64,000 bases of DNA. Origin: an archaeon. Its GTDB lineage: Archaea > Undinarchaeota > CAZHTU01 > JBDRCC01. The stretch's first letter is position 1. Each line of letters begins with the position of its first letter. Shown piece after piece: positions 18,810 through 63,467 of the stretch. The translations under genes and the position numbers were made by a program. The notes below the pieces were generated by a model. It saw nothing but the letters and a program-made list of their open reading frames with translations. It made no database searches and was not told the DNA's origin. The DNA lies in NCBI GenBank assembly GCA_043822065.1, contig JBDRCC010000006.1, forward strand, positions 9,673 through 73,672. Reading direction: 5' to 3'.

Positions 18810-21800
18810 GATACCGTCACCTGCCCGACATCAGTTACTTCCTGGTATATCGTGCCCCTGACGTTGAAAACGCCAGTCTGGCTGGTGGAGTTGACGTACC
18901 ACACCAGGCTCGTGGACTTGTTCACGTCTATGAATGGTATTATTCTCCAGTCAACGTCGTTGTTGCCGAATACGAGCCCGTTGTCGAGAGTTAGGTTGAC
19001 CGGGATGTTGTACTGCGCCTTCTTCGCAGTGTTCCAGACGTTTACCACCGAGACAAACGCCGAGTTCTGCGGCCTCTGCGACGGGACAAGGACGTCTATC
19101 GCCAGGACCTCGTCATACGAGTAAACCCTCTTCGAGAAGGGGTACTGGTTGTCGACAGTGTCAGTTTCCCCGCTGACCGGGTCGACGGATACCACAAAGC
19201 TGTGGTTGTACTGCGTTGATGCCCAGCTAAATGGCACATTGGTGGTTGCGCCTACTGCAAGGTTTGGTATCGTGTAGCTGTCCTTCTGTATTCCATCGAC
19301 AAACAGCCTGACGACGAGGCTGCTCTCAGCCCTCTCGCCCTCGTTCTTTATGGCTGCTGTGAAGTTCATGACATCCTTTTCGATTACAACGCTTGGGACA
19401 TACGTGACATTTACGACCCTTACGTCTGGTATCGGCGTCACTGTTACATTTATCCTGACTACTTTGGAGTCCTCAAGCCCCACAGTGTCCCTGACGCTTA
19501 TGTTGACCATGTGTATGCCTGCGTCCGCATGGACCGGCACGACTGATATTATTCCGCTGTTCTGGTCTATCGTGAAAAGCGGGCTGTTCGAGTAGAACCT
19601 GAGCGTGTCAAGCGGCATGTCCGGGTCGGTCGCGTTCACGTCAAGGTAGAACTGCTGGTACTCCCATGCGTAGTAGTCGCTTGCAAGGGTAGCCAGCACC
19701 GGCGGGTCGTTTACATTTATGACCGTTGCAACCGACATGTCCGAGTCGGTGTAGGTGCCGTCATTTGCAGTGAATGTTATCGTCTCAACGCCGTAGAAGT
19801 TAGGTGCCGGCGTCAGGGTCGCCACATGGGTGAGCGGGTCTATCGCAACAGCTATCTGGGCGTTTCCGCTTGCAGTCCAGGTTATGCTGGGGAGCGGAGT
19901 GTCCGCGTCAACGATATAATTGTCAAGGTCAATGCTGTTGTTGAACGAGTCCTCCATTATCCAGACGTTCGGTATGTCGCCGACATCAGGCCTTCCGGCT
20001 GCCGGAGCAACCGTTACCCGCATATAAGCAGTTATAACTGTCGTGCCGTCAGTCGCGTTGACAGTGACGTACCTGATGCCAGTATTTCCTATGCCAGGCG
20101 TCCAGGTCATCTGCCCTGTCGCCGGGTTGAACGTTATTGTGGTGTCGTTTATCCAGTAGGTTACTGCCTGCCCGTCCGGGTCTGTCGCATGGACTGTGTA
20201 GTCAAGGCTTGAGTCCTCGGCAATCGTCTGGTTTGCCGGGTACGGGTCCCAGTACGGCGCCTCTTCAACGCCGATAACTGTCACGGTTACGGTATCCGAG
20301 TCCGTCAGCCCGCCCGCGTCAGCTGCTGTGAACGTTATCGTCTCGCTTCCGGACCAGTTTGGAGCCGCTGTGAAATTGACCGTCCTGTCTGCCAGTATGG
20401 ACACCACGACATTCGTGTTTCCAGAATAGGTCCAGTTTATGTTCGCGTCAGGCGTCATGTCGTCGGTGACATACGCATCGAGACTTATTGTATCATTATA
20501 GAGGTCCTCAACGAACCAGACGTCCGGTATGTCTGTAACAACCGGCGCGTCGTTTACCTCGGTCACATTTACAAATATCTGGGCCCAGACTGCCTGCCCA
20601 GTGCTGTCGGTCGCATTGAACTCAACATGCCACATGCCGTTGAACCCTGCCGGCGCAGTCCAGCTCACGCCTCCGAGCGGCCCGACTGTGAACGTGGTGT
20701 CATTAACTCCATATGTTATCGCATCGCCATATTGAAGGTCTGCGTCCGATGCAAGGAGTAGCATCGAAAGGGTGCCCTCCTCAGCAATCGTTTGGTTCTG
20801 AGGGTATACCAACCAGAACGGGGCATCGTTTATCTGCTTGACATGAATAGTCAGGCTTGTCGTGTTCGCCAGCCCGTCCCCATCCATCGCCGTGAACGTT
20901 ATAGTCTCATTTCCAGCCCAGTCAGCATCTGCGGTCAGGTTCAGCTGCCTGTTCGAGTCAATCGTGGCGTGGACGTTGGTGCCCGTCCCAGTCCAGACTA
21001 TGTTCGCATCAGGTGTCATGTCGTCTGCGACATACGCATCCATATTCAGCGTGTCATTGTAAGCGTCCTCGTCGAACCAGACGTCCGGCATCGGGAAAGT
21101 CTCCGGCCTGTCGTTTACCGGGGTGACATTCACCCAGAAGTAGCCCCAAACAACTTCGCCAGCCGAGTCTGTGGCGTTGACCTCAAAGTACTCCATCCCA
21201 TTGAAGCCGCCAGCTGGCGTCCAGGCAATGTTTCCGCTTGAGTCAATAGTAGCTGTTCCGTTTATAGCGTAAGTTATGGCATCACCATATGGCAGGTCGG
21301 CGTCGCCAGCCTCAACCTGGAATGCTGCGGTCCCGCCCTCAGCTATCGTCTGGTTTGCCGGGTAGGTTACCCAGAACGGGGCGTCATTAACCTGAATCAC
21401 GCTGACCGTGAGCTGCGTCGTGTTCGCCAGCCCGTCCCCATCCATCGCCGTGAACGTTATAGTCTCATTTCCAGCCCAGTCAGCATCCGCTGTCAGGTTC
21501 AATATGCGAGTAGCAGAATCAATAACTGCGTGCACATTTGTCCCCGTACCCGTCCACACAATATCTGCATCTGCAGTCATATCATCTGTAACATAATCAT
21601 CCATCACGAGCGTGTCATTGTAAGTGTCCTCGTCAAACCAGACGTCCGGCATCGGGAAAGTCTCCGGCGGGTCGTTTACCGGGGTGACGTTCACCCAGAA
21701 GTAAGCCCAGGCAACCTCGCCTGCGAGGTCTGTCACGTTAACCTCAAAGTACTCATACCCGTTGAAGCTCCCTGGCGCAGTCCACTGGATGGTGCCGTTG

Positions 21801-24295
21801 GCATCAATCGTCGCCGTCCCGTTTATGCCGTATGCCAGGACATCACCATAGGGCGTGTCCACATCGCCGCCAGCCACCTGGAAGCCAACCGTTCCCCCCT
21901 CTTCGACAGTTTGGTTTGTGGGGTAGACGAGCCAGAACGGTGCGTCATTGACCTGAATAACATGCACCGTGAGCTGCGTCGTGTTAGTAAGCCCGCCCTC
22001 GTCAGCCGCAGTGAACGTTATAGTCTCATTTCCAGCCCAGTTTGCGTTTGCAGTCAGGTTAAGCTGCCTGTTTGAATCAATCGTGGCGTGGACGTTAGTC
22101 CCCGTACCAGTCCAGACTATGCTCGCGTCCGGCGTCATGTCGTCCTGGACGTAGGCGTCCATATTCAAGGTGTCATTGTAAGCATCCTCATCGAACCAGA
22201 CATCCGGCATCGGGAAAGTCTCCGGCGGGTCGTTTACCGGGGTGACGTTCACCCAGAAGTAAGCCCAGGCAACCTCGCCTGCGAGGTCTGTAACATTAAC
22301 TTCAAAGTATTCAATCCCGTTGAATCCCGCTGACGGGGTCCAGGTCACGAGGCCGTTTGCGTCAACAGCCGCAGTGCCGTTTATCGCGTAGGATATTGCG
22401 TCCCCGTAAGCCAAATCCGGGTCAGACCCATACAACTGATAAATCAGCTGGGTCTCCTCCTGTGTCTCAGTGTTGTTCGGGTAGGCAAGCCAGAATGGGG
22501 CGTCATTTACGTTCAGCACGCTGACATTCACGGCTTCCGAGTCAGTCAGCCCGCCCTCGTCTGTTGCAGTCAGTATTATACTCTCGTTCCCGGACCAGTT
22601 GCCTGCCGGCGTGAGTGTCAGTACGCGGGTAAGCGGGTCGACGGAAACCTGGACGTTTGCCCCGTTTCCGCTCCAGACTATGTCTGCGTCGGCGGATTCA
22701 AGGTCTGCGACGTAATCGTCAAGGCCAATCGTGTTGTTAAGCATGTCCTCGTCAATCCATATCGCAGGGAATGGGTCTACGACCGGCGGGTCGTTTACCG
22801 GGACAATGGTCACGAGCGTGCCGTCCGAGCCAATTCCGCCCTTTCCGTCGTCGGCCTGGAAAGTTATGGTCTCTGCGCCCGTCCAGTCTGCAGGCGGAGT
22901 GAAAGTGACAATGTTGTCCACGTCAACCGCGACGTTTATGTTTACGTTCCCGCTCCAGGTCCATGTCGGGACGTCGCCGTCTGGGTCTACGTAGCAGTCG
23001 TCAAGGTTAATCGAGTTGTTGAACGAATCCTCATCGGCGAACACGTCAGGGACATCCACGACCGGGGCGTCATTTCCGCACAGGACCTCAACGCCCATCG
23101 CCCCATAGTCGCTCAGCCCGCCCTCGTCTGTTGCAGTAAATATTATAGTCGCGTTTCCGCACCAGTCTGCGGCTGGCGTAAGCGTGAGCATGCCGTCAGC
23201 TGCAACTGTGGCCGTGACGTTGGCTCCGTTGTTTGTCCAGACAATGTCTGCGTCAGCGGTCTCCTCGTCAGCAACATAATCATCCATGTCGACGCTTGTG
23301 TCCGGCGTGTCCTCTGCCAGAGTCATCGCGGGCAGCGGGTCTACGACCGGCAGGTCGTTTACCTCTATAACATACATATTAAAGCTTGAGTTCGCCTGTG
23401 CGCCCTTCGAGTCGACAATCCAGACTGTTGTCCAGTACGGGCTGCCCGGGAGGTCTGCATTAACCGGAGTGAAGCTGAACTGCCCCGTGGCAAGGCCTAT
23501 GTCAAATAGGGTAGAATCGTCATAATACTGGAGCGGGAGGTTGTTTTCAGGGTCGGTTGCACTTACTGTGTAGCTGAAAAGAACGTCCTCTGTTGAGTAC
23601 AGGGTTGGGATTCCAGCGCCGCCATTCACAATTGGCGCCTTATTATAATAGACTAATACATCCTGCCAGTCGATAAGGTTCGTGCTGTCCTTTGCCCAAA
23701 ACCGCACCTGCGCAGGGCTTGAGGGGAAATCCCCATTTTGGGGCACATAATTTATCTCGCCAGTCACCAAATTGAGTTTGGATTTCATGAATGTGTTGTC
23801 GACATTAAACGACAGTATGTCGCCGAGGATGCTATCCTCATCCGTCGCAGTCAGGAAGTAGGTAAAAACCTGCCCCACATTCACGTAAAAGTCAGAAATT
23901 GCGCCAAGTACTGGCGCCTCGTTCACGTTCGTTACCGTTATCTGGATTGGCTGGCTTACCGGCGGGTTGACGCCGTCATTGACTGTGATACTGACAGTAA
24001 TCGGGCTTGCAAGGACCTCCGGGTCATCCCCGAAAAAGCTCACATAGAACCTAACGTCCTTCTTCCCATTGTCTGCGGCTTCCTTAGTTACGGTCACCCA
24101 AGGGTTATCCGCTGAAAAGCTGAGGATGTCCTTGTCGTCGTCATACGCCCAAAAAGTCGTGCTGTATGTATGCTCCTCGTTGGTCGTAATATCGTTAAGA
24201 ACCGTGAAGTATGGTGCTGAGTTCGCAGCAAACGCAAAGCTCGAGCTCAACAGTAATGCTAGGAACAACCAACCAACCTTACCCCTGGAACCCAT
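18806..24295 (-). CDS. Large secreted cadherin/Ig-like repeat surface protein (1829 aa)
   Basis: Signal peptide GWLFLALLLSSSFAFA. At least 8 alternating ~95-aa domains (VNDxPxV..IPDV...ED..N.T..LD.YV.D) and C-terminal CARDB-like domains. Dense N-x-S/T sequons. TATA TTTATATA lies ~35 nt upstream of the ATG. Confidence 0.85.
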   Translation of the reverse strand: MGSRGKVGWLFLALLLSSSFAFAANSAPYFTVLNDITTNEEHTYSTTFWAYDDDKDILSFSADNPWVTVTKEAADNGKKDVRFYVSFFGDDPEVLASPITVSITVNDGVNPPVSQPIQITVTNVNEAPVLGAISDFYVNVGQVFTYFLTATDEDSILGDILSFNVDNTFMKSKLNLVTGEINYVPQNGDFPSSPAQVRFWAKDSTNLIDWQDVLVYYNKAPIVNGGAGIPTLYSTEDVLFSYTVSATDPENNLPLQYYDDSTLFDIGLATGQFSFTPVNADLPGSPYWTTVWIVDSKGAQANSSFNMYVIEVNDLPVVDPLPAMTLAEDTPDTSVDMDDYVADEETADADIVWTNNGANVTATVAADGMLTLTPAADWCGNATIIFTATDEGGLSDYGAMGVEVLCGNDAPVVDVPDVFADEDSFNNSINLDDCYVDPDGDVPTWTWSGNVNINVAVDVDNIVTFTPPADWTGAETITFQADDGKGGIGSDGTLVTIVPVNDPPVVDPFPAIWIDEDMLNNTIGLDDYVADLESADADIVWSGNGANVQVSVDPLTRVLTLTPAGNWSGNESIILTATDEGGLTDSEAVNVSVLNVNDAPFWLAYPNNTETQEETQLIYQLYGSDPDLAYGDAISYAINGTAAVDANGLVTWTPSAGFNGIEYFEVNVTDLAGEVAWAYFWVNVTPVNDPPETFPMPDVWFDEDAYNDTLNMDAYVQDDMTPDASIVWTGTGTNVHATIDSNRQLNLTANANWAGNETITFTAADEGGLTNTTQLTVHVIQVNDAPFWLVYPTNQTVEEGGTVGFQVAGGDVDTPYGDVLAYGINGTATIDANGTIQWTAPGSFNGYEYFEVNVTDLAGEVAWAYFWVNVTPVNDPPETFPMPDVWFDEDTYNDTLVMDDYVTDDMTADADIVWTGTGTNVHAVIDSATRILNLTADADWAGNETITFTAMDGDGLANTTQLTVSVIQVNDAPFWVTYPANQTIAEGGTAAFQVEAGDADLPYGDAITYAINGTATIDSSGNIAWTPAGGFNGMEYFEVNATDSAGEVVWGYFWVNVTPVNDRPETFPMPDVWFDEDAYNDTLNMDAYVADDMTPDANIVWTGTGTNVHATIDSNRQLNLTADADWAGNETITFTAMDGDGLANTTSLTIHVKQINDAPFWLVYPQNQTIAEEGTLSMLLLASDADLQYGDAITYGVNDTTFTVGPLGGVSWTAPAGFNGMWHVEFNATDSTGQAVWAQIFVNVTEVNDAPVVTDIPDVWFVEDLYNDTISLDAYVTDDMTPDANINWTYSGNTNVVVSILADRTVNFTAAPNWSGSETITFTAADAGGLTDSDTVTVTVIGVEEAPYWDPYPANQTIAEDSSLDYTVHATDPDGQAVTYWINDTTITFNPATGQMTWTPGIGNTGIRYVTVNATDGTTVITAYMRVTVAPAAGRPDVGDIPNVWIMEDSFNNSIDLDNYIVDADTPLPSITWTASGNAQIAVAIDPLTHVATLTPAPNFYGVETITFTANDGTYTDSDMSVATVINVNDPPVLATLASDYYAWEYQQFYLDVNATDPDMPLDTLRFYSNSPLFTIDQNSGIISVVPVHADAGIHMVNISVRDTVGLEDSKVVRINVTVTPIPDVRVVNVTYVPSVVIEKDVMNFTAAIKNEGERAESSLVVRLFVDGIQKDSYTIPNLAVGATTNVPFSWASTQYNHSFVVSVDPVSGETDTVDNQYPFSKRVYSYDEVLAIDVLVPSQRPQNSAFVSVVNVWNTAKKAQYNIPVNLTLDNGLVFGNNDVDWRIIPFIDVNKSTSLVWYVNSTSQTGVFNVRGTIYQEVTDVGQVTVS
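20863..22291. repeat. 558-bp tandem repeats inside the 1829-aa gene (3 near-identical units plus diverged flanks)
   Basis: A 67-nt identical string (TGTTCGCCAGCCCGTCCCCATCC...CAGCATC) occurs at 20863-20929 and 21421-21487. A 73-nt identical string (TCTCCGGCGGGTCGTTTACC...GAGGTCTGT) occurs at 21661-21733 and 22219-22291. Both pairs are offset by 558 nt (186 aa). Confidence 0.85.
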
Positions 24296-29004: not shown

Positions 29005-30042
29005 CTATACTGCTAAGTCTTTGTAGGTCCTGACGACTTCCTTCAGCTTCGGCGAGTCAAAAACATCCCGTCCAAGGAACGCGTTGGCGGTCGAGGTGTA
29101 CATCTGCCCTATTATCCTCTTCAGCTCAGGGTGCAGCTTCGGCGGCTTGGACCTGCAAAGCGCTTTCCAGTCCGTGACCTTTTTTTCCTCGGCAGCGTTC
29201 TTTGCCTTCTCGACGTCCGAATACCACGCAGTCTTCCTGTAGAATTTCCTTGCCACTTCCTTGCTAACTGGAAGCCCGTTGTATGTAAACCTGCACTCGT
29301 CCAGGGTGCCAAGGATGTCGACGAGCATAAGCTCCCTCATTGGCCCGTAAGCAAGTTCTATCTTTCCATCCTCATTTACGAGGTCTGCCGTCGCCCCAAT
29401 TTCAGTTATAAGACCGTTTGCCTTCCGCAGGACGCCCTTGAGTTCGCCAAGCTCGGCATCACTCATGCAAGAAATCTCCTGCGCCTCCTCCCAGGTCATG
29501 TACCGATCCCTTACTTCAAGCTTTGTGCTCACGTCAAATATAGGATTGTCAAGCACCGCGCCAGGCTTTGGATAGTGGTCCAGCCCAAGCGCCTGGTAGG
29601 TCGTGTCACCCCGTTCAAGCCTCTTGAAAACGCTAGAGCCCTCCGGCAGGCGGTTCCTGTAAATTACCTCAAGCGGAATAAGGAAGTTTTCCAGTTTTGG
29701 AGTATAAGCTGAATAATCATACCTGCCGCCCTTGAACGGCGGCCTGATGACGTTAACGATTGACACTTCCATCACGTTCGACGGCTCTTCGAGCTCGTCC
29801 AGCCTGTGCGGCTTGCCGTCCTTGCCGACCAAGCCCTTGTAATGCGTTTTAATCCCGCGCCGCTCAATCTCCTCAAAACAGAAGGACCCCATTATGCACA
29901 GCGCGGCGCCCTTGTTCGGGATGTGGTCCGGCATCTCGCCCCAGTCGAACACAGAGTACCTGTCCGAGAAAACAAACCTGCCTACGCCCATCTTCCCCTT
30001 AGTGGGCTTTTTCAGAATTTGAAGGTCCTTTACGCTTCCCAT
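29005..30042 (-). CDS. purC: SAICAR synthetase (long form)
   Basis: GSVKDL...GRFVFSDRYSVFDWG N-terminal signature in a 345-aa protein. TATA CTATTTATATCCC lies ~27 nt upstream. Confidence 0.9.
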   Translation of the reverse strand: MGSVKDLQILKKPTKGKMGVGRFVFSDRYSVFDWGEMPDHIPNKGAALCIMGSFCFEEIERRGIKTHYKGLVGKDGKPHRLDELEEPSNVMEVSIVNVIRPPFKGGRYDYSAYTPKLENFLIPLEVIYRNRLPEGSSVFKRLERGDTTYQALGLDHYPKPGAVLDNPIFDVSTKLEVRDRYMTWEEAQEISCMSDAELGELKGVLRKANGLITEIGATADLVNEDGKIELAYGPMRELMLVDILGTLDECRFTYNGLPVSKEVARKFYRKTAWYSDVEKAKNAAEEKKVTDWKALCRSKPPKLHPELKRIIGQMYTSTANAFLGRDVFDSPKLKEVVRTYKDLAV

Positions 30043-30090
30043 CGGCTTTCCTAAGAATCAGGGATATAAATAGATTTACTCAAACAAAAA

Positions 30091-30132
30091 GCGAGAGGCG
30101 GCAGTTCCCCGAATAAATGGGGCTTACTACAC
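30091..30132 (+). repeat. rnpB-3'-end-derived repeat, copy 1
   Basis: GCGAGAG-GCGGCAGTTCCCC-GAATAAAT-GGGGCTTAC-TACAC, located 24 nt 3' of the HEPN stop. Confidence 0.85.
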
Positions 30133-30155
30133 AAAAATACTTCTTCTGGATAAAA

Positions 30156-30587
30156 CTAGCCGGTGTTCTTTTTCAATTCGTTTTTGATTTTCGGCAGAAA
30201 TTCTGTTAGGAACTCCAGTGCATCCTGGCATTCAGCAATGCTCACCGCTTCGGCGCTGTAAATGGCGTTGTTTCTCAACTTTCTTAATCTGTCAAAGGTT
30301 TCAGCATCCTGGTTGGGGATCTCTGTGAACTCCTTTAGGAATGCCACGAGAACTGTGTGGGAATACGGCTTGTACCCTACGTTAGACATCAACGCCTGAA
30401 CGGCCTCACGCATGCACTCATAGATGTCTTCGAAAATGAAGTCAGCGTTTTCTTCTGAAATCTCTTGAGTCTTTATATATTTCAAACGATTACTCGCTTT
30501 CGTAATAAGGGAGTTTGCTTCTGCAGGGTCCGCTGTTTTTCTTACTACTTCCTGTTTGTCCAGATAGTACTCAAATTCCTCTATCAT
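30156..30587 (-). CDS. HEPN-domain protein (toxin-like partner of MNT)
   Basis: 143-aa all-helical protein with the HEPN-type LRKLRNNAIYS motif. ATGA overlap with the upstream MNT gene. Confidence 0.8.
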   Translation of the reverse strand: MIEEFEYYLDKQEVVRKTADPAEANSLITKASNRLKYIKTQEISEENADFIFEDIYECMREAVQALMSNVGYKPYSHTVLVAFLKEFTEIPNQDAETFDRLRKLRNNAIYSAEAVSIAECQDALEFLTEFLPKIKNELKKNTG

Positions 30588-31114
30588 CTTAGCGCTCTTA
30601 GATATCCGCTCAAAACTACTCCATTCGCCAGGTCATTTAGGAACTCTGGGTTTGACTTGCTGAGGTCCACGTCATGTATGTTTATTTTCCGTCCTAGAAT
30701 CCCCTCAAACTTCTTTGCACTAAACTCAATGCTCCTTTTTGTCACAATTGCCAAATCAACATCACTCTTTATAGTGTCCTCGCCGCGCGAGTAGGAGCCA
30801 AAAAGCACAACTGCCTCTGGCTCATTGTACTTTCTTACAATTTCTGAGACAAGTCCAGACCTTTGAAGCATATATAAATTGAAAAACCTCTTGAGGGGGA
30901 AAAACTCGCCACCGTCAAAATCTGGATAATAGTTCAGTACTGCTTTTCCCCTCTCAGACTTCAGAATTTTCTCAGATTCGAGCTTCTTTAGAATGCTGGA
31001 AACAGCAGGAAGTGACAAGCCAGTGAGCCGGCTTAATTCACGAATATGAAACTTCCCAGTGGGATTATTAAAGAACGGTTTCAATAGCTTAAACCGGTTA
31101 TCTTTTTCTAACAT
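30584..31114 (-). CDS. wHTH-fused minimal nucleotidyltransferase (MNT, antitoxin-like)
   Basis: N-terminal wHTH (HIRELSRLTGLSLPAVSSILKKLE) plus the GSYSRGEDTIKSDVDL pol-beta NTase motif. TATA TTTATATA lies ~30 nt upstream. Confidence 0.85.
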   Translation of the reverse strand: MLEKDNRFKLLKPFFNNPTGKFHIRELSRLTGLSLPAVSSILKKLESEKILKSERGKAVLNYYPDFDGGEFFPLKRFFNLYMLQRSGLVSEIVRKYNEPEAVVLFGSYSRGEDTIKSDVDLAIVTKRSIEFSAKKFEGILGRKINIHDVDLSKSNPEFLNDLANGVVLSGYLRALR

Positions 31115-31177
31115 CTGTTATAAAATAGTAACAAGTGTTATATAAACCTAACGGTTGAAGTAACACGAGCTCCCGTT

Positions 31178-31235
31178 GCATGCGAGAGTAAACGGGGGCA
31201 GTTCCCAAATAAATGGGGCTTACTATACACTCGCA
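31178..31235 (+). repeat. rnpB-3'-end-derived repeat, copy 2
   Basis: GCATGCGAGAGTAAAC-GGGGGCAGTTCCC-AAATAAAT-GGGGCTTAC-TATAC, enclosed by a 6-bp inverted repeat (TGCGAG/CTCGCA). Confidence 0.85.
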
Positions 31236-31287
31236 GAGGGCGATTAACTAACAGTCCAAATCCATTCCTTGTTGTTTTTATTTCACC

Positions 31288-31833
31288 TCAATCGAAGTAG
31301 TTTTCAGGTTTTAGTCTTTCTGCGGCAGCTGTTTGTTCCTTTTTCATTCTTCTGATGTTTTTTCTGCCAATCTCTTTTATACCATCTTTCATTAACTCTT
31401 CATAGCCCTCCGTGTCAAGTTCGAGGTAGCAAAGTCTGCCATCATAGGCAACAATTCTATATCCTAACTTAAGGTGCAGAAAAGTAGAAGCGTCGAAGTC
31501 CTCGGTCTCTCTTTTGACTTTGGATACGGCAGCTATGACTCTGCGAACTCCATATTTCCCATATAGGCATTTTAGAACTTGGAATTCAAAGGACTGACCA
31601 CAGCGTCTCCCCTTGAATTTTATGTGCAGCCCATGGATAAATGCAATGTTCCCGTCTAGGGTACACATTATCTCTCCGACTTGATTTTCTTCGTTGTGCT
31701 TGCCCTTCTCATAAAACAAAAACTGAATAGTTTTTGTAAGGCCCTTTCGACAATAAGGATAGTCTACTGGGAAGGGGCGCTGGTACATAATCAAAAGCAT
31801 TCTTTCCTTGGAGTTTATTTTTATCTCTTCCAT
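31288..31833 (-). CDS. Hypothetical protein, possibly GNAT-like acetyltransferase
   Basis: 181 aa. The segment IAFIHGLHIKFKGRRCGQSFEFQVL...FLHLKLGYRIV loosely fits GNAT motif A/B. The call is weak. Confidence 0.35.
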   Translation of the reverse strand: MEEIKINSKERMLLIMYQRPFPVDYPYCRKGLTKTIQFLFYEKGKHNEENQVGEIMCTLDGNIAFIHGLHIKFKGRRCGQSFEFQVLKCLYGKYGVRRVIAAVSKVKRETEDFDASTFLHLKLGYRIVAYDGRLCYLELDTEGYEELMKDGIKEIGRKNIRRMKKEQTAAAERLKPENYFD

Positions 31834-31911
31834 CTTATATCAATGCCCTTCCTGCTCCACATCGCATCATTTTTGAGCATGACTTTTCTGATGCTTTCTC
31901 CTTATAAAAAT

Positions 31912-31998
31912 GTAAGCGCCGGGCGCGGGAGCATAACCAGCAGTTCAAACCACATAATTGATACGAAACAGTAAGCCGGTAAAATGAGCTTACTAACC
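31912..31998 (+). repeat. Decayed copy of the rnpB-derived repeat
   Basis: GTAAGCGCC ... CCAGCAGTTCAAACC ... AAAATGAGCTTACTAAC has the same order of parts as copy 3 but with many substitutions. It overlaps the stop of the 113-aa membrane-protein gene. Confidence 0.45.
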
Positions 31999-32334
31999 TG
32001 CTAACAGCTTTACTACCTCTAGCACAATTATTACTGGTAGCAAATAGAAAACAATACTGCCCAAAACAATATGCCCAATCAACGACTTAATCAGGAGTAT
32101 TCCAGCAATCAGCCCTACTGCTACTGCTGGCAGTCCGATTGGCGACATTCCGTGGTGGACAACATGGATTACTTGTGCAAGTATTAGCAGCATGCCCAAC
32201 GCCCACAGCGCTGCTATGTTCGGAGTCGCACTTGAAATGTGGACCTTGAAAATCAGGCCAGCAAGTATTACCAAAAGAGTTGACGGAAGCACACATACTG
32301 GGTCTATATGGCCCCTATTTGACATTTTAAACAT
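31993..32334 (-). CDS. Small His-containing membrane protein (113 aa)
   Basis: Three to four hydrophobic helices and a VIHVVHHG motif. It is divergent from the Fur-family gene. Confidence 0.5.
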   Translation of the reverse strand: MFKMSNRGHIDPVCVLPSTLLVILAGLIFKVHISSATPNIAALWALGMLLILAQVIHVVHHGMSPIGLPAVAVGLIAGILLIKSLIGHIVLGSIVFYLLPVIIVLEVVKLLAG

Positions 32335-32365
32335 AAGTTCAATTTGTCAGATATATTTAAATATG

Positions 32366-32388
32366 TTATTGATTTCCATTATCAATAA
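32366..32388. promoter_or_regulatory. Perfect 8-7-8 palindrome, candidate Fur-family operator
   Basis: TTATTGAT-TTCCATT-ATCAATAA lies between the TATA ATATATTTAAATAT (32351-32364) and the fur-like ATG (32393), in the divergent intergenic region. Confidence 0.35.
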
Positions 32389-32392
32389 GCAA

Positions 32393-32761
32393 ATGCCAAG
32401 AAAAACTAGGCAGAAAGAGCTCCTCCTGTCAGAGGTGGAAAAACTTGATGTCATCTTCTCTGCAGATGACCTGTTCAAGCTGGCTAGGGAAAAGGACACA
32501 AAGATTGGGATTGCAACGGTATACCGCTTTCTTAGAAACCTAATGGCAAAGCAGCAGCTCCATTCCTACCTATGCAACCGGCGCATGGTATACTCCAAGG
32601 ATATGAACAGCCACTGCCACTTTATATGCCAAAAATGCGGAAAAGTTGCTCACTTCAAAGTTGAGGATATCGGATTTATAAAAGAGAAAATAGACGGCCA
32701 GCTCTGCCATTTCCAGATAGATGTGCACGGGCTCTGCAGAGGCTGTCTAAAAGCCGAGTAG
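32393..32761 (+). CDS. Fur-family metalloregulator (Fur/Zur/PerR type)
   Basis: IGIATVYRFLRNL wHTH, HCHFICQKCG and CRGC metal-site motifs in a 122-aa protein. The ATG at 32393 is preferred to the long ORF starting at 32192. Confidence 0.8.
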   Translation: MPRKTRQKELLLSEVEKLDVIFSADDLFKLAREKDTKIGIATVYRFLRNLMAKQQLHSYLCNRRMVYSKDMNSHCHFICQKCGKVAHFKVEDIGFIKEKIDGQLCHFQIDVHGLCRGCLKAE

Positions 32762-32776
32762 ATATTTTTTGCATGG

Positions 32777-32845
32777 CAAGCCCCTTAGCATGTGAAAGTA
32801 AAATCGAGAGGGGGCAGTCCCCCGACTAAATGGGGCTTACTATAC
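32777..32845 (+). repeat. rnpB-3'-end-derived repeat, copy 3 (full length, 69 nt)
   Basis: GCAAGCCCC-TTAGCA-TGTGAAAGTAAAATCGAGAG-GGGGCAGTCCCCC-GACTAAAT-GGGGCTTAC-TATAC. The outer 9-mers are inverted repeats. Confidence 0.9.
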
Positions 32846-32866
32846 AAATCCTTAACGACATGAAGA

Positions 32867-33412
32867 TTATTCTCCAGATTCGGTTAGAAGAGCATCAATT
32901 TTATCTACGAAATCATTTGCGTCCTTTACCAATAAATCTGCTGCCTCTCTTTCTATCCCCACTTCAGCCGAGTACTGCGCAGTTTCCCTTTCCCTCCTTG
33001 CTCGCCGGAGCTTCATGACATACTCTTCTTCAAGTTTTTTCGCCTCTCTCAGCGTCTCAAGGTGCTTCTTCTCCAGCAGCCCTTTTCTGACATAATAGCA
33101 CTCGAGGGCCATACTCGTAGCGGCATGATTCTTGCTCCAGAAACCCAATTTACCTATCGCCGCTAAAGCGGCATGGTACATGGCGTAGTAGGAACAGACG
33201 ACAACCCAGTCGTTAGCTTTGAAATCGTGAAGCTTGAGAATATCCTGCGCATTCTTAGACTTGTCCAGCAATCTTAGAACCTTTGCAACCAACAGATTAT
33301 GTCTTGCTTTTTCTATGTGGTTTGGAACTAACCTCGCAATGTGAAATCCTTTTCCGAACGTACCTTCTTCTTCAAACTTCCTAAGTTTTTTCTTAAGCTC
33401 TTCCGCTTTCAT
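32867..33412 (-). CDS. HEPN-domain protein (second pair)
   Basis: Helical protein with the HEPN-type RRARRERETAQYS motif. The start at ATG 33412 is supported by an ATGA overlap with the MNT stop and a GAGGTGA SD. Confidence 0.8.
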   Translation of the reverse strand: MKAEELKKKLRKFEEEGTFGKGFHIARLVPNHIEKARHNLLVAKVLRLLDKSKNAQDILKLHDFKANDWVVVCSYYAMYHAALAAIGKLGFWSKNHAATSMALECYYVRKGLLEKKHLETLREAKKLEEEYVMKLRRARRERETAQYSAEVGIEREAADLLVKDANDFVDKIDALLTESGE

Positions 33413-34032
33413 AACTTCACCTCGAACACAATATCCCAAAATCTCTTATGGCCAAAAATAATTATGCCATCTGTCAACGCTTCGGTACCGACAGTGGATG
33501 TTTCAGAGGCAAGCATTTTTTTCATACTTTCCAAATCTGCGACAACAGTCGAAATACTCTTGCCATAGCGCATCTCTATAGTACTTGCAATTCTATCAAC
33601 CACCCCCTTATCCTTTAACGAGGACGATAGAGTGAGCAAATCAATATCACTTCTTTCGGTTCCCCCCCCTCTCGCATATGAGCCAAACAACACAACAGAC
33701 TGTAGTCGTTCGCCAAGTTCTTCTTTAACGCCTGATAAAAATTCGTCAACTATTTTCCCTGCACTTGACTTTCTCCCAAAGAGCTCCTCCCGCTCTTCTT
33801 CCGTGAGGAGGGACAGATAAGTCTTAGTTTTTTCAGTGTCCTTCAAGCCAATTTCATACGCCTTTCCAACTCTATTCTTCCCAAGGACCCCTTCCGCGAC
33901 CAAAGAGTTAACATGCCGGTGCGTCGGCTCATATGATAATCCAATTCTTTCCGAAAGTTCGCGGATAGTGTAAGTCGCACCAATGTCCCTTCTGTAAGCT
34001 TTCAATACTCTAAAGATGTTTTCTAACTTCAT
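33409..34032 (-). CDS. wHTH-fused minimal nucleotidyltransferase (second pair)
   Basis: wHTH (YTIRELSERIGLSYEPTHRHVNSL) plus the GSYARGGGTERSDIDL motif. The ATG at 34032 (MKLENIF) is preferred; the longer ORF runs into repeat copy 4. Confidence 0.85.
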   Translation of the reverse strand: MKLENIFRVLKAYRRDIGATYTIRELSERIGLSYEPTHRHVNSLVAEGVLGKNRVGKAYEIGLKDTEKTKTYLSLLTEEEREELFGRKSSAGKIVDEFLSGVKEELGERLQSVVLFGSYARGGGTERSDIDLLTLSSSLKDKGVVDRIASTIEMRYGKSISTVVADLESMKKMLASETSTVGTEALTDGIIIFGHKRFWDIVFEVKL

Positions 34033-34094
34033 ATTGGATTTTCCAATAATGTTATTGGATTTCCAAATATAAACTTTTCGCTCCATGAAATCAA

Positions 34095-34129
34095 GGGGCA
34101 GTTCCCCGAACAAATGGGGCTTACCTAAC
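34095..34129 (+). repeat. rnpB-3'-end-derived repeat, copy 4
   Basis: GGGGCAGTTCCCC-GAACAAAT-GGGGCTTAC-CTAAC, located 23 nt 3' of the ferritin-like ORF stop. Confidence 0.85.
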
Positions 34130-34151
34130 AGTCAAAGTCCATCTGCCGGAT

Positions 34152-34600
34152 TTACTCTATCCTGTCAATTAGGTCTGAGATGTCCTGTGCGTGTTTCTTC
34201 TTCCCTGCGATAAGGGTATGGAACGTGTCCCTTTGCAGCTTGCTGGAAGCAAGGCGTGCGCCCTTTTCATACATCTCTGCCGCCTTTACCTCTCCTATCA
34301 ATCCTTCAGTCAGTTTCGCGACAAGTTTTGAGGTGGCAGGGGTGGCGCGTTTCACCTTTTTGCCAAAGAACTCACGGGATAATAGTTCCAGTACCTTGAC
34401 ATGCTGCTCACTCTCCGCAATAATCTTTTCAACGATAGCTCGTGCACTCTTTTTGTTTTCTGCGGGGATGTTCGCCCCCCCCCCAGTTCGGTTAACAGTT
34501 TTTTGTAGAAATCTATGGACGATAATTCCCCCGTTATAGCGACTTTGTTGATTAGTGTGATTAATTCTTTGTCCTGAATTCTCTTTTTGTAGTCCATCAT
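34152..34600 (-). pseudogene. Four-helix-bundle (ferritin-like, tentative) gene split by a frameshift in a G10 run
   Basis: The N-terminal part (MMDYKKRIQDKELITLINKVAITGELSSIDFYKKLLTELGGG) is in one frame. The rest (ANIPAENKKSARAIVEKIIAESEQHVKVL...DRIE) is in another. The switch is at the C10/G10 homopolymer at 34475-34484. Confidence 0.5.
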
Positions 34601-34711
34601 CTTTAGCCCCCCCTTTTTTTTGGGCATATCCCCTTAAGAAAAACAAGTATTTAACACATACGTCTAAACAAACAAAGCCCTAAAATTAAGTAAAGATGCG
34701 CCGAGGGGGCG

Positions 34712-35491
34712 TCATCCTTTTTCACGCAAGGCTTGATTTAACCAGTCAGAGGCATACTCCGCTATTTCTTGCCAGCCCGGTTCCCCAATGACCCAGTGGG
34801 CATGGTTCGCGAATTCCTTGTAAGTTGAAACAGCCTTATATTTATCTGCAACTTTCCGAACAACTGAAGCAGGAGTGATCCTATCCTCGGCTCCGGCAAC
34901 AACCAGAACAGGACAAGTAACCTTTGATTCATCAACGTTTGCCGCCCCCTTGGAATCAAGAAGCCAGAATCCGATTTCGTATGCTGCCCGCCCTGACTCG
35001 TAAACAAATTTGTCAAAAGCCTCCTTTTGCTCATCGGCCGTGAGTAAATGCATCATCGAATACGCCGCATCATCAAAACCTTGCCGCATTGGCTTTCTCC
35101 AAAAGCCCCATTTTGTGAATACGCCCCAAAAACTTTTTATCACCGATGGCGTTAAGGCTATAATCCCCCGTGGTGATGCGGGAGTTAACAAAACAAGGGC
35201 TTTAGCCAATCCCCGGCTCCCAAGGATTTGTGCGAGAAGCCCGCCCATTGAGTGTCCCATCAGGATAGGGGTCGCGTCAAGCTCTCTAATTTTGTTCTCA
35301 AGGTCTTCAGCATAATCCAATATGCTGGTTGTTCCCAATAGGGGATTGGGGGTTTCACCCGGGCCCATATCATGAAAGCGCAGAGTGGGGTTAATACAAT
35401 GATAACCATTCTCCTCGAAAAATTTCTTGTAGTTCTCCCAACACCATCCGCCACCCCACATACCATGAATCATTATTATTGTTTCAGTCAT
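34712..35491 (-). CDS. Alpha/beta-fold hydrolase
   Basis: IIMIHGMWGGG oxyanion region, nucleophile elbow GHSMGG, and C-terminal D and H. ATG 35491 with a GGAGG SD. Confidence 0.8.
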   Translation of the reverse strand: MTETIIMIHGMWGGGWCWENYKKFFEENGYHCINPTLRFHDMGPGETPNPLLGTTSILDYAEDLENKIRELDATPILMGHSMGGLLAQILGSRGLAKALVLLTPASPRGIIALTPSVIKSFWGVFTKWGFWRKPMRQGFDDAAYSMMHLLTADEQKEAFDKFVYESGRAAYEIGFWLLDSKGAANVDESKVTCPVLVVAGAEDRITPASVVRKVADKYKAVSTYKEFANHAHWVIGEPGWQEIAEYASDWLNQALREKG

Positions 35492-35599
35492 GATTTGCCT
35501 CCGTTCGTTCAGCAATTTTGCATAATGCCCTATGCAGATATTTTTATATGCAATTGTTTATATAAAATATATTTGGTCACTACTGAACCTTTTCCTACG

Positions 35600-35626
35600 G
35601 TAAGCCCCACCTATTGTGCGAAAGTA
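35600..35626 (+). repeat. Direct extra copy of the 9-mer GTAAGCCCC just beyond the rnpB 3' end
   Basis: GTAAGCCCC at 35600-35608 repeats the CR-V 9-mer at 35643-35651 in the same orientation, 43 nt apart. The segment 35600-35636 is the template of the left arm of repeat copy 3. Confidence 0.7.
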
Positions 35627-35938
35627 AAATCGAGAGGAGGTAGTAAGCCCCATTCTGTTCAGGCCGCGGAAAACTTCACGCAAGGCCCTCTACGGCATTA
35701 GACTGAGCGTCTTAGACTTGCACCCGCCGGGGCCATGGCCGTTTCATTCCCATCCGCCGCCTCAGGTTTTCCATCATCACAAGGCGGAAAGGATATCGTT
35801 TCTGATCCTGGCCCTGCCAGTCTCCCGGCAGCGCTTGCGCGCCAGTTTCGGCAGGATAGATTCCAGCCGAGGTGTGGGGACTTTCCTCGCCCCTTCGCGT
35901 TTGAATGCTTAGGGACGGCGGCCGTTCTCCCCCTCTCA
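35627..35938 (-). ncRNA. rnpB: RNase P RNA (~312 nt)
   Basis: The sense strand carries CR-I GAGGAAAGUCCCCAC (35874-35888), GGCAGGGCCAGGAUCAGAAAC (CR-II/III-like), GGAUGGGAAUGA (CR-IV-like) and CR-V ACAGAAUGGGGCUUA (35644-35658). AAAGUCCCC and GGGGCUU can form P4. The 5' GAGAGGGGG (35929-35937) pairs with the 3' CCUCCUCUC (35632-35640). A TATA lies 26 nt upstream and U-runs follow the 3' helix. Confidence 0.8.
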
Positions 35939-36040: not shown

Positions 36041-37762
36041 ATGGATGTTCCGTTCTTCGCAGAGCTAACTGCAATCATCGTAACTACGTTGGCAGTCTCA
36101 GGCGCCCTCCGCCTGCTGAAGCAGCCGCTGATAATAGGCTATATCCTCTCCGGGGCCATAATCGGCCCTGCGGCGCTGAACCTTGTGCGCTCCCACGACG
36201 CTATTGCGAACTTTTCCCAGTTGGGCGTAGTCTTCCTGCTGTTCATCGTCGGGCTCAACCTGAACCCAAGGGTGATACGGGACGTGGGGAAAGTCGCGCT
36301 TGTGACGGGCGTGGGGCAGGTGGCATTTACAGTCGCCTTCGCACTTCTGCTCTGCAAGCTCATAGGTTTCACCCTCATCGAGTCCCTTTATGTCTCAATA
36401 GCCCTTGCCTTCAGCAGCACAATCATCATAATGAAGCTGCTCTCGGACAAGAAGGAGATGGAGACCCTTTTTGCAAGAATCTCCATAGGGTTCCTTATAG
36501 TCCAAGACATCATCGCGATTGTCCTGCTTGTCGCCATCTCCTCGCTTGCAGGCGGGGCGAACGTTACCCTCCTCATTACGGAGACTCTTTTCAGGGGCCT
36601 TTTGATAATGATTGCCCTTGTTGCAGTCAGCCTGTACGCCCTGCCCAAAATAGTGGCAGAAGTTGCCAAGTCGCAGGAGTTCCTGTTCCTGTTCTCCCTA
36701 GGGTGGTGCCTGTCCGTTGCGACCGCATTCCACTACGCGAATTTCTCCATTGAGGCTGGGGCGCTCTTAGCCGGAATTGCGCTCTCTATCAGCCCCTACC
36801 ACTACGAGATAAGCTCCAGGATGCGGCCCCTGCGGGACTTTTTCATAATCCTCTTCTTCATATGGCTTGGCTCCCAGATGCAGTTTGCGAACTTTGCCGC
36901 GCAGGTGCCCATCGGCATCGCCCTCTCAGCACTTGTGCTCTTCGGGAACCCGCTCATAGTCATGACCCTGATGGGCCTGCTCAACTACACCAAGCGGAAC
37001 AGCTTCAAGGCAGGCCTAACGGTTGCGCAGATAAGCGAGTTCTCTCTTATAATAGTCGCGCTCGGGGTGAAGCTGGGGCACCTATCCGCAGAATTTCTGT
37101 CGCTACTCACTTTTGTCGGGTTGCTGACGATGGGCGGCTCGACCTACATGATACTCTACTCCGACCGGCTTTACGGCATTCTGTCCAAGCGCCTCTCAAT
37201 TTTTGAACGGAAGGGGAGGAAGATTGACGAGCACAGGTACCACAAGGACCATAGCTACGACATAATCCTCTTCGGGTATGACCGCATCGGGTATGACATC
37301 CTCGAGTCCCTCAAGAAGATAAAGCGGACCTTCCTCGTGATTGACTATGACCCGGAACTAATCGTGAAGCTCTCGAAGGAAGGGTATGACTGCAAGTATG
37401 GGGACGCAAACGACTCCGAGCTCCTAAACGACCTCAATATGTCTGACACGAAGATGGTAGTTTCAACCATACCAACCATCGACACAAACCTCCTGATTAT
37501 AAACAAGGTCAAGGAAGCGAACGACCGCACGATTATCGCAATCGTTTCCCACCAGATTGATGACGCACTGAGGCTCTATGACGCAGGTGCGACCTATGTC
37601 ATACTGCCGCATTTCCTCGGCGGCCGGTACCTCTCGACAATGATCGAGCGCAACAAGCTCGACATAAACAAGTTCCTCCGGGAGCGCGCCCTCCACATCT
37701 CCGACATCAAGGCGAGGAAAGAAAGGGGGCACGAGCATCCAAGGCACGAGAAGCACCATTGA
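36041..37762 (+). CDS. CPA2 (Kef-type) cation:proton antiporter with C-terminal RCK/TrkA-N domain
   Basis: About 12 TM helices beginning ...PLIIGYILSGAIIGP, and a C-terminal Rossmann-like DIILFGYDRIGYDI region. Confidence 0.85.
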   Translation: MDVPFFAELTAIIVTTLAVSGALRLLKQPLIIGYILSGAIIGPAALNLVRSHDAIANFSQLGVVFLLFIVGLNLNPRVIRDVGKVALVTGVGQVAFTVAFALLLCKLIGFTLIESLYVSIALAFSSTIIIMKLLSDKKEMETLFARISIGFLIVQDIIAIVLLVAISSLAGGANVTLLITETLFRGLLIMIALVAVSLYALPKIVAEVAKSQEFLFLFSLGWCLSVATAFHYANFSIEAGALLAGIALSISPYHYEISSRMRPLRDFFIILFFIWLGSQMQFANFAAQVPIGIALSALVLFGNPLIVMTLMGLLNYTKRNSFKAGLTVAQISEFSLIIVALGVKLGHLSAEFLSLLTFVGLLTMGGSTYMILYSDRLYGILSKRLSIFERKGRKIDEHRYHKDHSYDIILFGYDRIGYDILESLKKIKRTFLVIDYDPELIVKLSKEGYDCKYGDANDSELLNDLNMSDTKMVVSTIPTIDTNLLIINKVKEANDRTIIAIVSHQIDDALRLYDAGATYVILPHFLGGRYLSTMIERNKLDINKFLRERALHISDIKARKERGHEHPRHEKHH

Positions 37763-53685: not shown

Positions 53686-54084
53686 CTATAAAAGCTTAGC
53701 CTCAACCCTTGCCGCAAGCCCCTTGGAAACCAGGCCTTTCCTTATTTCTGCGAGCGGATGCTTGCACTTCGAAACGTCTGCCACAACCTCCCAGCGGGCC
53801 GTCTTAGTCCGCCTGGTCGACTTCGACTGCGTCCTGACGAGGTCGACACCCTCATTGAACAGGTACGTAGCTGCTTTCGATAGGGCTCCCGGCTTGTCGG
53901 AGAACTCAATAACTAACTTGACCAACTTCTTACCCGCTTCAGCAACCGGGTGGACGACTATGCTCTCGCCGTCTTCCGAAAGGCCGACCATCACGCGGTC
54001 GCCTTCCTTAAGGTCTAGCTCCTCGCGGATGGAATTCGGTATCACAAGCCTTCCCCGCGTGTCAAGCCGGATGACGGAAGCCAT
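53686..54084 (-). CDS. AbrB/SpoVT-type DNA-binding domain fused to an ACT-like domain
   Basis: VIRLDTRGRLVIPNSIREELDLKEGDRVMV (swapped-hairpin AbrB fold) followed by KLVIEFSDKPGALSKAATYLFNEGVDLV (ACT-like). The ATG at 54084 is preferred to 54156. Confidence 0.7.
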   Translation of the reverse strand: MASVIRLDTRGRLVIPNSIREELDLKEGDRVMVGLSEDGESIVVHPVAEAGKKLVKLVIEFSDKPGALSKAATYLFNEGVDLVRTQSKSTRRTKTARWEVVADVSKCKHPLAEIRKGLVSKGLAARVEAKLL

Positions 54085-54105
54085 GCTCCCACTTAATTCC
54101 CGCAA

Positions 54106-54141
54106 GTTTATAATCGTTCTCCAAAAAGATTTATAAACTCC
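54106..54141. promoter_or_regulatory. Back-to-back TATA boxes for AbrB-ACT (minus) and PIN (plus)
   Basis: GTTTATAATC (54106-54115) and GATTTATAAAC (54131-54141) are each ~22-27 nt from the respective ATG (54084 and 54160). Confidence 0.4.
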
Positions 54142-54159
54142 GAAACCCGCCAGCAATTC

Positions 54160-61549: not shown

Positions 61550-61554
61550 CGAAG

Positions 61555-61626
61555 GGCCGGAGGCGGGAGTCGAACCCGCGTCACCGGATCCACAGTCCGG
61601 TAGGATACCGCTACCCCACTCCAGCC
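61555..61626 (-). tRNA. tRNA-His (anticodon GUG) with genome-encoded G-1
   Basis: Manual fold: G(-1) GCUGGAG UG GGGU-AGCGGUA-UCCU A CCGGA-CUGUGGA-UCCGG UGAC GCGGG-UUCGACU-CCCGC CUCCGGC C. The acceptor stem has 7 bp with one G-U, and C73 lies opposite G-1. CCA is not encoded and there is no intron. Confidence 0.85.
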
Positions 61627-63378: not shown

Positions 63379-63467
63379 TTATGTATAATTTACTACCTCA
63401 TATCGGGCATTCTTCGAGAGGGTCATAGGAAAACTTATTAAGTACAAAACAATAACTCAGATAAGAT

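Follow-up and report, generated by a model that had tools for sequence, protein, structure and literature searches.

The Block Between purC and rnpB

The 64,000-nt stretch of DNA analysed here (the window) comes from an Undinarchaeota archaeon (GCA_043822065.1, contig JBDRCC010000006.1, positions 9,673-73,672) and contains, between the SAICAR synthetase gene purC and the archaeal RNase P RNA gene rnpB, a block of small gene units separated by repeats that resemble the 3′ end of rnpB. The block measures about 5.5 kb and runs from the purC promoter to the last base of rnpB, which is complete to position 288 of its Rfam model. Its GC content is 0.434, compared with 0.548 for the rest of the window, so that the low-GC array described at this place in an earlier note, made from the sequence alone, was recovered by direct measurement. 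Along the window the value lies at 0.40-0.47 between 30.0 and 35.6 kb and at 0.52-0.58 in the flanks, and no other conspicuous low-GC island occurs in the 64 kb. GC at third codon positions (GC3) is likewise shifted, to 0.43-0.57 in the genes of the block against 0.62-0.74 in the neighbouring host genes. By both measures the composition of the block is foreign to the host.

Repeats Derived From the End of the RNase P RNA Gene

Four co-oriented repeats (30098-30132, 31195-31228 with a 1-nt deletion, 32811-32845, and 34095-34129), here called sites c1 to c4 in order from purC to rnpB, delimit four cassettes of 1.0-1.5 kb each. The 12-mer AATGGGGCTTAC occurs five times in the 64 kb, in the four repeats and on the opposite strand in rnpB, where 0.33 occurrences would be expected by chance; the repeats lie where they had previously been placed, and this 12-mer is confined to them and to rnpB. 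In rnpB sense, the end of the gene reads CCUGAACAGAAUGGGGCUU-ACUACCUCCUCUC-GAUUUUACUUUCGCAC..GGUGGGGCUUACC, and a repeat reads GUAGUAAGCCCCAUUUAUUCGGGGA-ACUGCCNCCUCUC-(tail). The left arm GUAGUAAGCCCCAUUUAUUCGGGGA is the reverse complement of conserved region V (CR-V) of rnpB, and the match is perfect over 14-15 nt in three window copies and over 12 nt in c4, with about 20/24 positions agreeing overall in the best copies. The 13-nt core that follows, ACURCCNCCUCUC, repeats the terminal P1 strand of rnpB in direct orientation. The right arm consists of a T-rich tail and then a second CR-V-like motif, GGGGCUURC, in direct orientation. Internal sites of about 70 nt therefore carry inverted CR-V-like arms on either side of the core or, equivalently, the cassettes are bounded by inverted CR-V-like motifs.

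The similarity to rnpB exceeds what chance would produce. For each copy, a null distribution was drawn from about 4500 genomic 44-mers and 5000 shuffles; its maxima were 20-25, whereas the inverted CR-V arms gave local alignment scores of 27-31, and none of the null reached the observed value. The inverted match to CR-V claimed in the earlier note thus stands against both shuffled and genomic controls. In c3 and c2 the direct similarity extends beyond the core into the sequence downstream of rnpB, most clearly at 32791-32818 of c3, which matches 35617-35644 over 28 nt at 89%; this bears out the same-orientation copy of the rnpB tail that had been seen to the left of the longer repeats. A covariance model was built from the four window copies and the copy of a related genome (L001, described below) and was run with filters off. 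It found no further copies in the 64-kb window or in 21 kb of L001, and gave a weak match on the rnpB end of the window. Since the scans of sequence collections described below likewise returned nothing or chance matches, the repeat is not a dispersed element. A decayed fifth copy, previously suggested at 31912-31998, was not upheld: the covariance model has no match there at E ≤ 10, and the score of the segment is reached by 31/2000 shuffles and by 27/370 windows of the block.

The sites differ in how complete they are. Site c3 retains every part, and its outer arms GUAAGCCCC and GGGGCUUGC are capable of pairing. At the distal site c1 the core runs not into a cassette tail but into the T-rich trailer GCUUUUUGUUU of the host and the purC promoter. 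Beside rnpB itself, the tail ends in a direct CR-V-like motif that reads GTAAGCCCC on the plus strand (35600-35608). The CR-V motif GGGGCUUAC is thereby repeated directly 42-43 nt downstream of the native one, a spacing of about four helical turns, in the window (35600-35611 and 35643-35654) and in L001 (8400-8411 and 8442-8453). This spacing may be relevant to protein binding at the proximal site.

A Second Locus With Different Genes

The sole related genome found with purC-rnpB synteny is that of a Candidatus Undinarchaeota archaeon (contig JBHORJ010000001.1, GCA_042565525.1; L001), whose purC product is 74% identical to that of the window in a protein search. Both share the gene order RuBisCO, purC, a variable interval, rnpB, a 118/129-aa protein, TauE, and an HD protein, and the 118-aa neighbour of rnpB is 59% identical between them. 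The earlier note had suggested looking between purC and rnpB of relatives for an empty site or different cassettes. In L001 this interval contains different genes, AP_endonuc_2 and OmdA/DUF8412, which read in the opposite direction, towards rnpB, and between these two lies the same site, GUAGUAAGUCCCAUUCAUUCGGGGA-ACUACCUCCUCUC (71.7 bits with the covariance model). Its core is 13/13 identical to L001's own rnpB end, and the sequence downstream of L001 rnpB has the same type of tail, ending in the direct CR-V-like motif ACAGAAUGGGGCUUACC. The two genomes thus differ by 13 points in overall GC (0.405 in L001) and have no common cargo, and both the site and its location are kept. A decayed site copy at the L001 purC promoter was considered and rejected as not significant.

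The L001 locus bears directly on the possibility of an assembly chimera, in which a low-GC segment of another organism would have been joined to the contig at short common repeats. Such an error would fit the sharp GC step at both borders, and the block's GC of 0.43 is near that of the L001 genome. It is nevertheless barely credible, since an independent assembly has the same architecture at the same place, both flanks of the block are syntenic with L001, and the copies diverge every 15-20 nt or less, leaving identical runs too short for mis-joining.

Other relatives of purC (≤69% identity) showed purE-purC synteny or had short upstream DNA, with no rnpB in the three contigs scanned (L024, L025, L028), and the 118-aa neighbour of rnpB, used as a query in a protein search, matched only itself. 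Immediately beside rnpB on its promoter side, the window has a Na+/H+ exchanger-TrkA_N gene (36041-37762) that is absent at the syntenic position of L001, so the other flank of rnpB is variable as well.

Cassettes and Their Cargo

Pfam matches in the cassettes confirm much of the cargo that had been read from the translations, namely two MNT/HEPN pairs, a Fur-family regulator, and an alpha/beta hydrolase; a GNAT-like label given to the product of 31288-31833 found no significant support (Table 1). The ferritin-like pseudogene of the earlier note is weakly supported, as the open reading frame (ORF) stitched across its frameshift matches Rubrerythrin at E=1e-3, below the Pfam cut-off. This ORF is interrupted by a G10/C10 homopolymer (34476-34486), and a C7T8 run also occurs at ~34606-34620. 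A genuine frameshift, phase variation of the tract, or an error in sequencing the homopolymer could each account for the interruption.

Table 1. Components of the array, its cargo genes, and the bounding host genes, with positions in the window. Bit scores of sites are from the covariance model of the repeat. wHTH, winged helix-turn-helix.
Feature	Position	Strand	Description
purC (SAICAR synthetase)	29005-30042	-	Host gene bounding the array on the left; Pfam; synteny with L001
Site c1	30091-30135	-	Distal, attR-like; inverted CR-V arm and core ACUGCCGCCUCUCG; 81.7 bits
Cassette 4	30136-31166	-	Distal; wHTH-MNT and HEPN with own promoter/operator region
HEPN, cassette 4	30156-30587	-	Pfam
wHTH-MNT, cassette 4	30584-31114	-	Pfam
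Site c2	31167-31231	-	Inverted CR-V arm with 1-nt deletion, shortened core, tail with degenerate motif CGGGAGCUCG; 63 bits
Cassette 3	31232-32775	mixed	Fur-family regulator, small membrane protein, 181-aa protein without assigned function
181-aa protein, cassette 3	31288-31833	-	No significant family support
Small membrane protein, cassette 3	31993-32334	-	
Fur-family regulator, cassette 3	32393-32761	+	Pfam
Site c3	32776-32848	-	Most complete, ~72 nt; inverted CR-V arm, core ACUGCCCCCUCUC, tail, direct CR-V-like motif GGGGCUUGC; 74.9 bits
Cassette 2	32849-34078	-	wHTH-MNT nucleotidyltransferase and HEPN; Pfam
HEPN, cassette 2	32867-33439	-	Pfam
wHTH-MNT nucleotidyltransferase, cassette 2	33409-34032	-	ATG start probable
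Site c4	34079-34133	-	Inverted CR-V arm, core with 3-nt deletion, degenerate tail; 60.9 bits
Cassette 1	34134-35598	-	Adjoins rnpB; alpha/beta hydrolase and frameshifted rubrerythrin/ferritin-like ORF; GC 0.456
Rubrerythrin/ferritin-like ORF, cassette 1	34152-34646	-	Frameshift at G10 run ~34476-34486
Alpha/beta hydrolase, cassette 1	34712-35515	-	Pfam
rnpB-proximal tail	35599-35631	-	In rnpB sense GAUUUUACUUUCGCAC...GGUGGGGCUUACC; T-rich trailer, then direct CR-V-like motif
Target region (attB/attI-like)	35632-35663	-	Native CR-V/P4 3′ strand and 13-nt terminal P1 strand
Terminal P1 strand	35632-35644	-	ACUACCUCCUCUC, 13 nt; direct core common to every repeat
Native CR-V/P4 3′ strand	35640-35663	-	CCUGAACAGAAUGGGGCUUACUAC; part of target region
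rnpB	35632-35937	-	Complete archaeal RNase P RNA gene; Rfam RF00373, 131.1 bits, E=1.7e-36, model positions 1-288

The MNT proteins of cassettes 2 and 4 are 25% identical and their HEPN proteins are unrelated, which indicates that the two cassettes were acquired independently and that tandem duplication was not how the array grew. The closest homologue of the cassette 4 MNT-HEPN pair (L038, 59%) has the genes and, by eye, the promoter/operator in common with it, and no site at its borders. The site is thus a separable module placed on ordinary gene units. No copy of it was present around the closest homologues of the cassette MNT (L029-L040), and those of these loci that were scanned with Rfam contained no rnpB.

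Homologues that are 54-55% identical to the cassette 4 MNT lie in a different setting, a unit of 1926-1928 bp with MNT, HEPN, an 82-aa ORF, and a minus-strand AAA gene. This unit adjoins an RFC gene and is bounded by exact 79-nt direct repeats, without the rnpB-type site. Some contigs wrap around it, with terminal overlaps of 127-182 nt (repeated segments at 1-79/1927-2005 in L032, 1-127/1927-2053 in L036, 202-383/2128-2309 in L034, and 1-79/1929-2007 in L039). The arrangement suggests a small circular or tandem element that would have no integrase of its own.

Site Classes and Probable Serial Insertion

When the 26 nt downstream of each core are compared across the window and L001, the sites fall into proximal, internal, and distal classes. 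The proximal tails of the window and L001 and the internal tails of c3 and c2 are mutually similar (p ≤ 0.007), and the tail of c4 is degenerate. The distal sites of the two genomes are unlike the proximal and internal tails (p>0.17) and marginally similar to each other (p=0.06); they continue into T-rich host sequence, which is GCUUUUUGUUU in the window and GCUUUUCAUUUUC in L001. This pattern matches serial site-specific insertion, from which attL, hybrid, and attR classes are expected. The proximal site would then consist of the left half of the target and the right arm of a cassette, with the tail next to rnpB (35599-35631) as the arm carried in by the latest arrival. Internal sites would join the left arm of one cassette to the right arm of the previous one, and the distal site would join a left arm to the original rnpB trailer.

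On this evidence it is probable, with room for serious doubt, that the block arose by the successive insertion of four foreign cassettes at the 3′ end of rnpB through site-specific recombination, with the recombinase acting in trans. Each cassette would bring a site of about 70 nt, made up of the inverted CR-V left arm, the 13-nt core, and the right arm, and its chromosomal partner would be the rnpB end with its native CR-V motif, core, and terminator. Circular cassettes would be inserted there by a recombinase whose gene lies elsewhere in the genome or on a helper element. The crossover would fall in or beside the core, probably in its CUCUCG part: the cores in the window read ACUGCC[C/G]CC and the present rnpB end reads ACUACCUCC, which suggests an exchange 3′ of the differing positions. 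As the core would be regenerated and the cassette tail would supply a new T-rich terminator, rnpB would stay intact. A new cassette would enter between rnpB and the previous one, and repetition would build the array. The conserved CR-V-like motif, which occurs at either end of the cassettes as well as in the target, would most likely serve as the binding site of the recombinase. The serial capture put forward in the earlier note, by analogy with integrons, withstands the three refuting outcomes that the note had named, since the repeat is not dispersed, the interval in L001 has other genes with the site between them, and the match to CR-V is well beyond chance; the site classes and the independent MNT/HEPN cassettes support it further. 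The anatomy of the sites, the foreign composition, the different cargo of L001, and the three site classes are observed, and from them we infer the recombination reaction, the position of the crossover, and the trans-acting enzyme.

A transposase could in principle take the place of the recombinase. The units would then be non-autonomous transposon cassettes, comparable to cargo-bearing MIC/MITE-like elements such as Bacillus MIC231, whose CR-V-like inverted repeats are bound by a transposase in trans and which insert beside sequences that look like their own ends. The native CR-V of rnpB would act as such a pseudo-end, and the core, with or without the tail, would be a target-site duplication. 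Inverted matches of 11-15 nt centred on GGGGCTTAC at the ends of 3/5 cassettes, with the same motif in the target, agree with this, as does the identity of the c4 arm GGGGCTTACCTAAC to the proximal arm of L001, and a long target-site duplication could account for the duplicated core of 13 nt. The repeats are, however, subterminal and lie at unequal distances from the core, and two cassettes have degenerate left ends. The tails also differ from the host trailer (p>0.17), as would be expected of an arm carried by the element more than of a duplicated target. With no transposase or Cas1 in the window and no partner element found, we consider a transposon origin rather improbable.

Predicted Folding of the Sites

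A 9-bp interrupted stem, GUAGU..CCCC-loop-GGGG.ACURC, is predicted in each copy of the site. The hairpins are thermodynamically modest, and only the full 74-nt c3 folded as RNA stands out (-27.6 kcal/mol, z=-3.3). No compensatory changes were seen among the five site sequences, and a conserved RNA structure is neither supported nor refuted by five sequences that lack covariation.

The position of the sites nevertheless raises the question of whether they act in RNA. All four window copies lie 21-59 nt 3′ of the stop codon of a minus-strand ORF, as the earlier note had placed them, and are followed by a T-rich run. The minus-sense copy holds a perfect 15-nt complement of CR-V/P1, and the small hairpin is predicted in every one. 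They could be terminators or processing hairpins that originated from the rnpB end, or antisense or mimics of RNase P RNA, in either case spread locally by duplication or gene conversion, with the differences in cargo due to ordinary rearrangement. Against such a signal, the cargo of L001 is reversed, so that the site there does not lie 3′ of the cassette gene that adjoins rnpB, and the predicted hairpins are weak. It would also leave the foreign GC, the unrelated cargo, and the proximal, internal, and distal site classes unexplained. We therefore hold it to be highly unlikely.

As an observation in its own right, the 3′ untranslated regions of the minus-strand cassette transcripts would contain perfect antisense stretches of 14-15 nt to the CR-V/P4-P1 strand of RNase P RNA (GUAGUAAGCCCCAUU; window 30116-30130, 31212-31225, and 32829-32842). 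A conserved antisense role seems unlikely given that the orientation of the site relative to the cargo genes is reversed in L001.

Search for a Recombinase and Evidence Against Insertion

Several results weigh against site-specific insertion of cassettes. No integrase, transposase, or Cas1 domain was found by Pfam in any ORF of at least 70 aa in the 64-kb window, as had been read from the sequence for integrases and transposases; the ORFs without a Pfam match were rechecked with looser cut-offs, and most were compared with PHROGs as well. For the 21-kb L001 locus, the precomputed Pfam lists likewise contain no recombinase, transposase, or Cas1 domain. Neither an empty site nor a circular cassette nor a second array was retrieved. 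The window cores differ at two positions from the present rnpB end, which reduces exact core identity to only about 6 nt, and c4 and c2 carry deletions in core or tail. The weakness of the hairpins and their lack of covariation count here as well. Gene orientation relative to the site is not fixed, with the Fur gene of the window and both cargo genes of L001 reversed, and AP_endonuc_2 in L001 may be a resident gene rather than a cassette. Finally, the system is known from two genomes only, and exact-pattern scans for the repeat in genome, viral, and metagenome contig collections gave 0 matches.

Wider scans were equally negative. A looser pattern covering rnpB CR-V and the repeats gave 6 bacterial matches in genome contigs and 16 matches in metagenome contigs, all by chance, and 0 in viral contigs; the metagenome loci so matched had no rnpB by Rfam. 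The full-site pattern gave 0 matches in viral contigs, and neither the plasmid nor the phage collection matched the block by blastn. Because the pattern scans found neither the repeat nor the window's own rnpB in the genome, metagenome, and viral collections, the lineage is absent from these and is rare.

The missing integrase would be accounted for if plasmids or viruses with integrases had repeatedly integrated at rnpB, as such elements do at tRNA genes, and later lost these and most other genes by deletion, so that att repeats and a few captured genes were left behind. This would correspond to gene capture as understood by She et al. 2001 (cited in PMC8371274). Integration of this kind classically leaves direct core repeats of the end of an RNA gene and restores the gene itself, and erosion could also be read from one cassette with a frameshifted gene and two sites with deletions. 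The four window units and the one or two of L001 are, on the other hand, all 0.7-1.5 kb long. Those of the block are tightly packed with intact genes except for the frameshifted ORF of cassette 1, with hardly any non-coding room, and neither space nor an ORF for an integrase remnant was seen. Moreover, internal sites keep both arms, which random loss would not preserve unit after unit in two genomes. Erosion of integrative elements is for these reasons unlikely, if still worth considering. It shares with the transposon explanation the implication of serial insertion at rnpB, and the two differ in the enzyme and in the former autonomy of the units.

Comparison With Known Cassette Systems

The array is most readily compared with integrons and with clusters of attC sites lacking integron-integrases (CALINs), including the integrons of archaea (Ghaly et al., 2022, PMC9668308). 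They have in common arrays of 0.7-1.5 kb cassettes with 1-3 genes, co-oriented and imperfectly palindromic sites of about 60-70 nt, an inferred single proximal insertion site, toxin-antitoxin cassettes, and cassettes without a recombinase. In contrast, the IntI that lies nearby in integrons was found in none of the ORFs of at least 70 aa in the 64 kb. Pairs of the attC core motifs R′′ (RYYYAAC) and R′ (GTTRRRY), sought by regular expression on both strands of 30001-35700, numbered 0 against 1.3 expected by chance, and a single R′′-like heptamer occurs only in c4; canonical attC sites were accordingly rejected. The sites here are also conserved in sequence and derived from rnpB, the core common to them lies between the palindrome arms rather than at the outer end, and an essential RNA gene provides the proximal site with its end, where integrons have an attI beside intI. 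Lastly, these cassettes have their own promoters and mixed gene orientation, whereas integron cassettes are mostly promoterless and co-oriented under a common Pc. Integron-like is therefore an analogy, as the array has neither the IntI nor the attC core motifs that define integrons and CALINs.

Integrative islands of the Islander type (PMC4383910), which occupy tRNA and tmRNA genes, and gene capture in archaeal chromosomes resemble the array in another respect, as they use the 3′ end of an essential structured RNA gene that is regenerated by the element, leave a displaced direct repeat of the gene end at the far border, and can accumulate in tandem. The distal direct repeat of the rnpB end comprises 13/13 core positions in L001 and 11/13 at c1 of the window, plus GGGG upstream. 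The array differs in that its target is rnpB, its units are about 10 times smaller and have no integrase, and an extra inverted copy of the target region is present. The phrase RNase P RNA is absent from the archaeal integron paper (PMC9668308), and no report of rnpB as an attachment (attB) or cassette site was found in the paper library searched, itself incomplete.

Modules without a recombinase of their own are also known from Xer-dependent systems, such as integrative mobile elements exploiting Xer (IMEX) and the pdif modules of Acinetobacter plasmids, in which small modules, often of toxin-antitoxin or single accessory genes, are flanked by short sites that a host enzyme recombines in trans. 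The pdif sites have 28 bp (11-6-11) and alternate in orientation, whereas those described here are co-oriented, about 70 nt long, and derived from rnpB, with arms of 9-13 nt that lie 40-47 nt apart and an inner GGGG-N4-5-CCCC; the window itself contains neither the dif site of the host nor XerA. In mobile insertion cassettes (MIC) such as MIC231 and in cargo-bearing miniature inverted-repeat transposable elements (MITEs), inverted repeats flank passenger genes, which are mobilised in trans; the inverted repeats of the present cassettes are subterminal and imperfect, there is one specific insertion point, and no parent insertion sequence is known. Casposons encode Cas1, end in terminal inverted repeats, and duplicate 14-15 bp of their target, the 3′ end of a tRNA or EF-2 gene; the units here are far smaller, and the window contains no Cas1 domain. 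A Tn7-like att site was rejected, as no tns genes are present and the archaeal Tn7 paper does not mention RNase P.

There is somewhat under an even chance that the array represents an undescribed archaeal platform for gene capture, with the rnpB 3′ end as the equivalent of attI, the palindromic site of about 70 nt derived from CR-V/P4 as that of attC, and a dedicated recombinase elsewhere that recognises the motif. If it does, integrons and Xer/pdif modules would gain a third, archaeal counterpart among the cassette systems that lack a recombinase, and RNase P RNA would be added to the few RNA genes that serve as targets of integration. Few known RNA sequences are as conserved as the P4/CR-V strand, and a recombinase that reads it would have a near-universal landing pad. 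Given the near invariance of CR-V, cassettes of one to three genes could then move between distantly related hosts; in the present case, cassettes of ~43% GC lie in a 55% GC genome. Such a landing pad would be of interest for horizontal gene flow in Undinarchaeota and DPANN-neighbourhood archaea and as a possible tool for genome engineering. More arrays, and the missing enzyme, could be sought with a concrete search image, namely inverted CR-V copies that lie up to a few kb downstream of rnpB.

Other Features of the Window

Two giant ORFs of 3493 aa (30-10511, +) and 1829 aa (18806-24295, -) contain repeats of the Big_9, cadherin-like, FG-GAP, He_PIG, and CARDB families and probably encode surface adhesins; the syntenic end of L001 holds a giant gene similar to them. 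A divergent MazE-like/PIN toxin-antitoxin pair lies at 53686-54576 among histidine-biosynthesis genes, where GC dips locally to 0.498. Near the right end of the window, a tRNA-His (GTG) gene (61554-61625) has two flanking ORFs without a family match (61783-62622 and 62767-63378), and the GC content of the last kb (63001-64000) falls to 0.45, so that a second island may begin near this tRNA gene or the window end.

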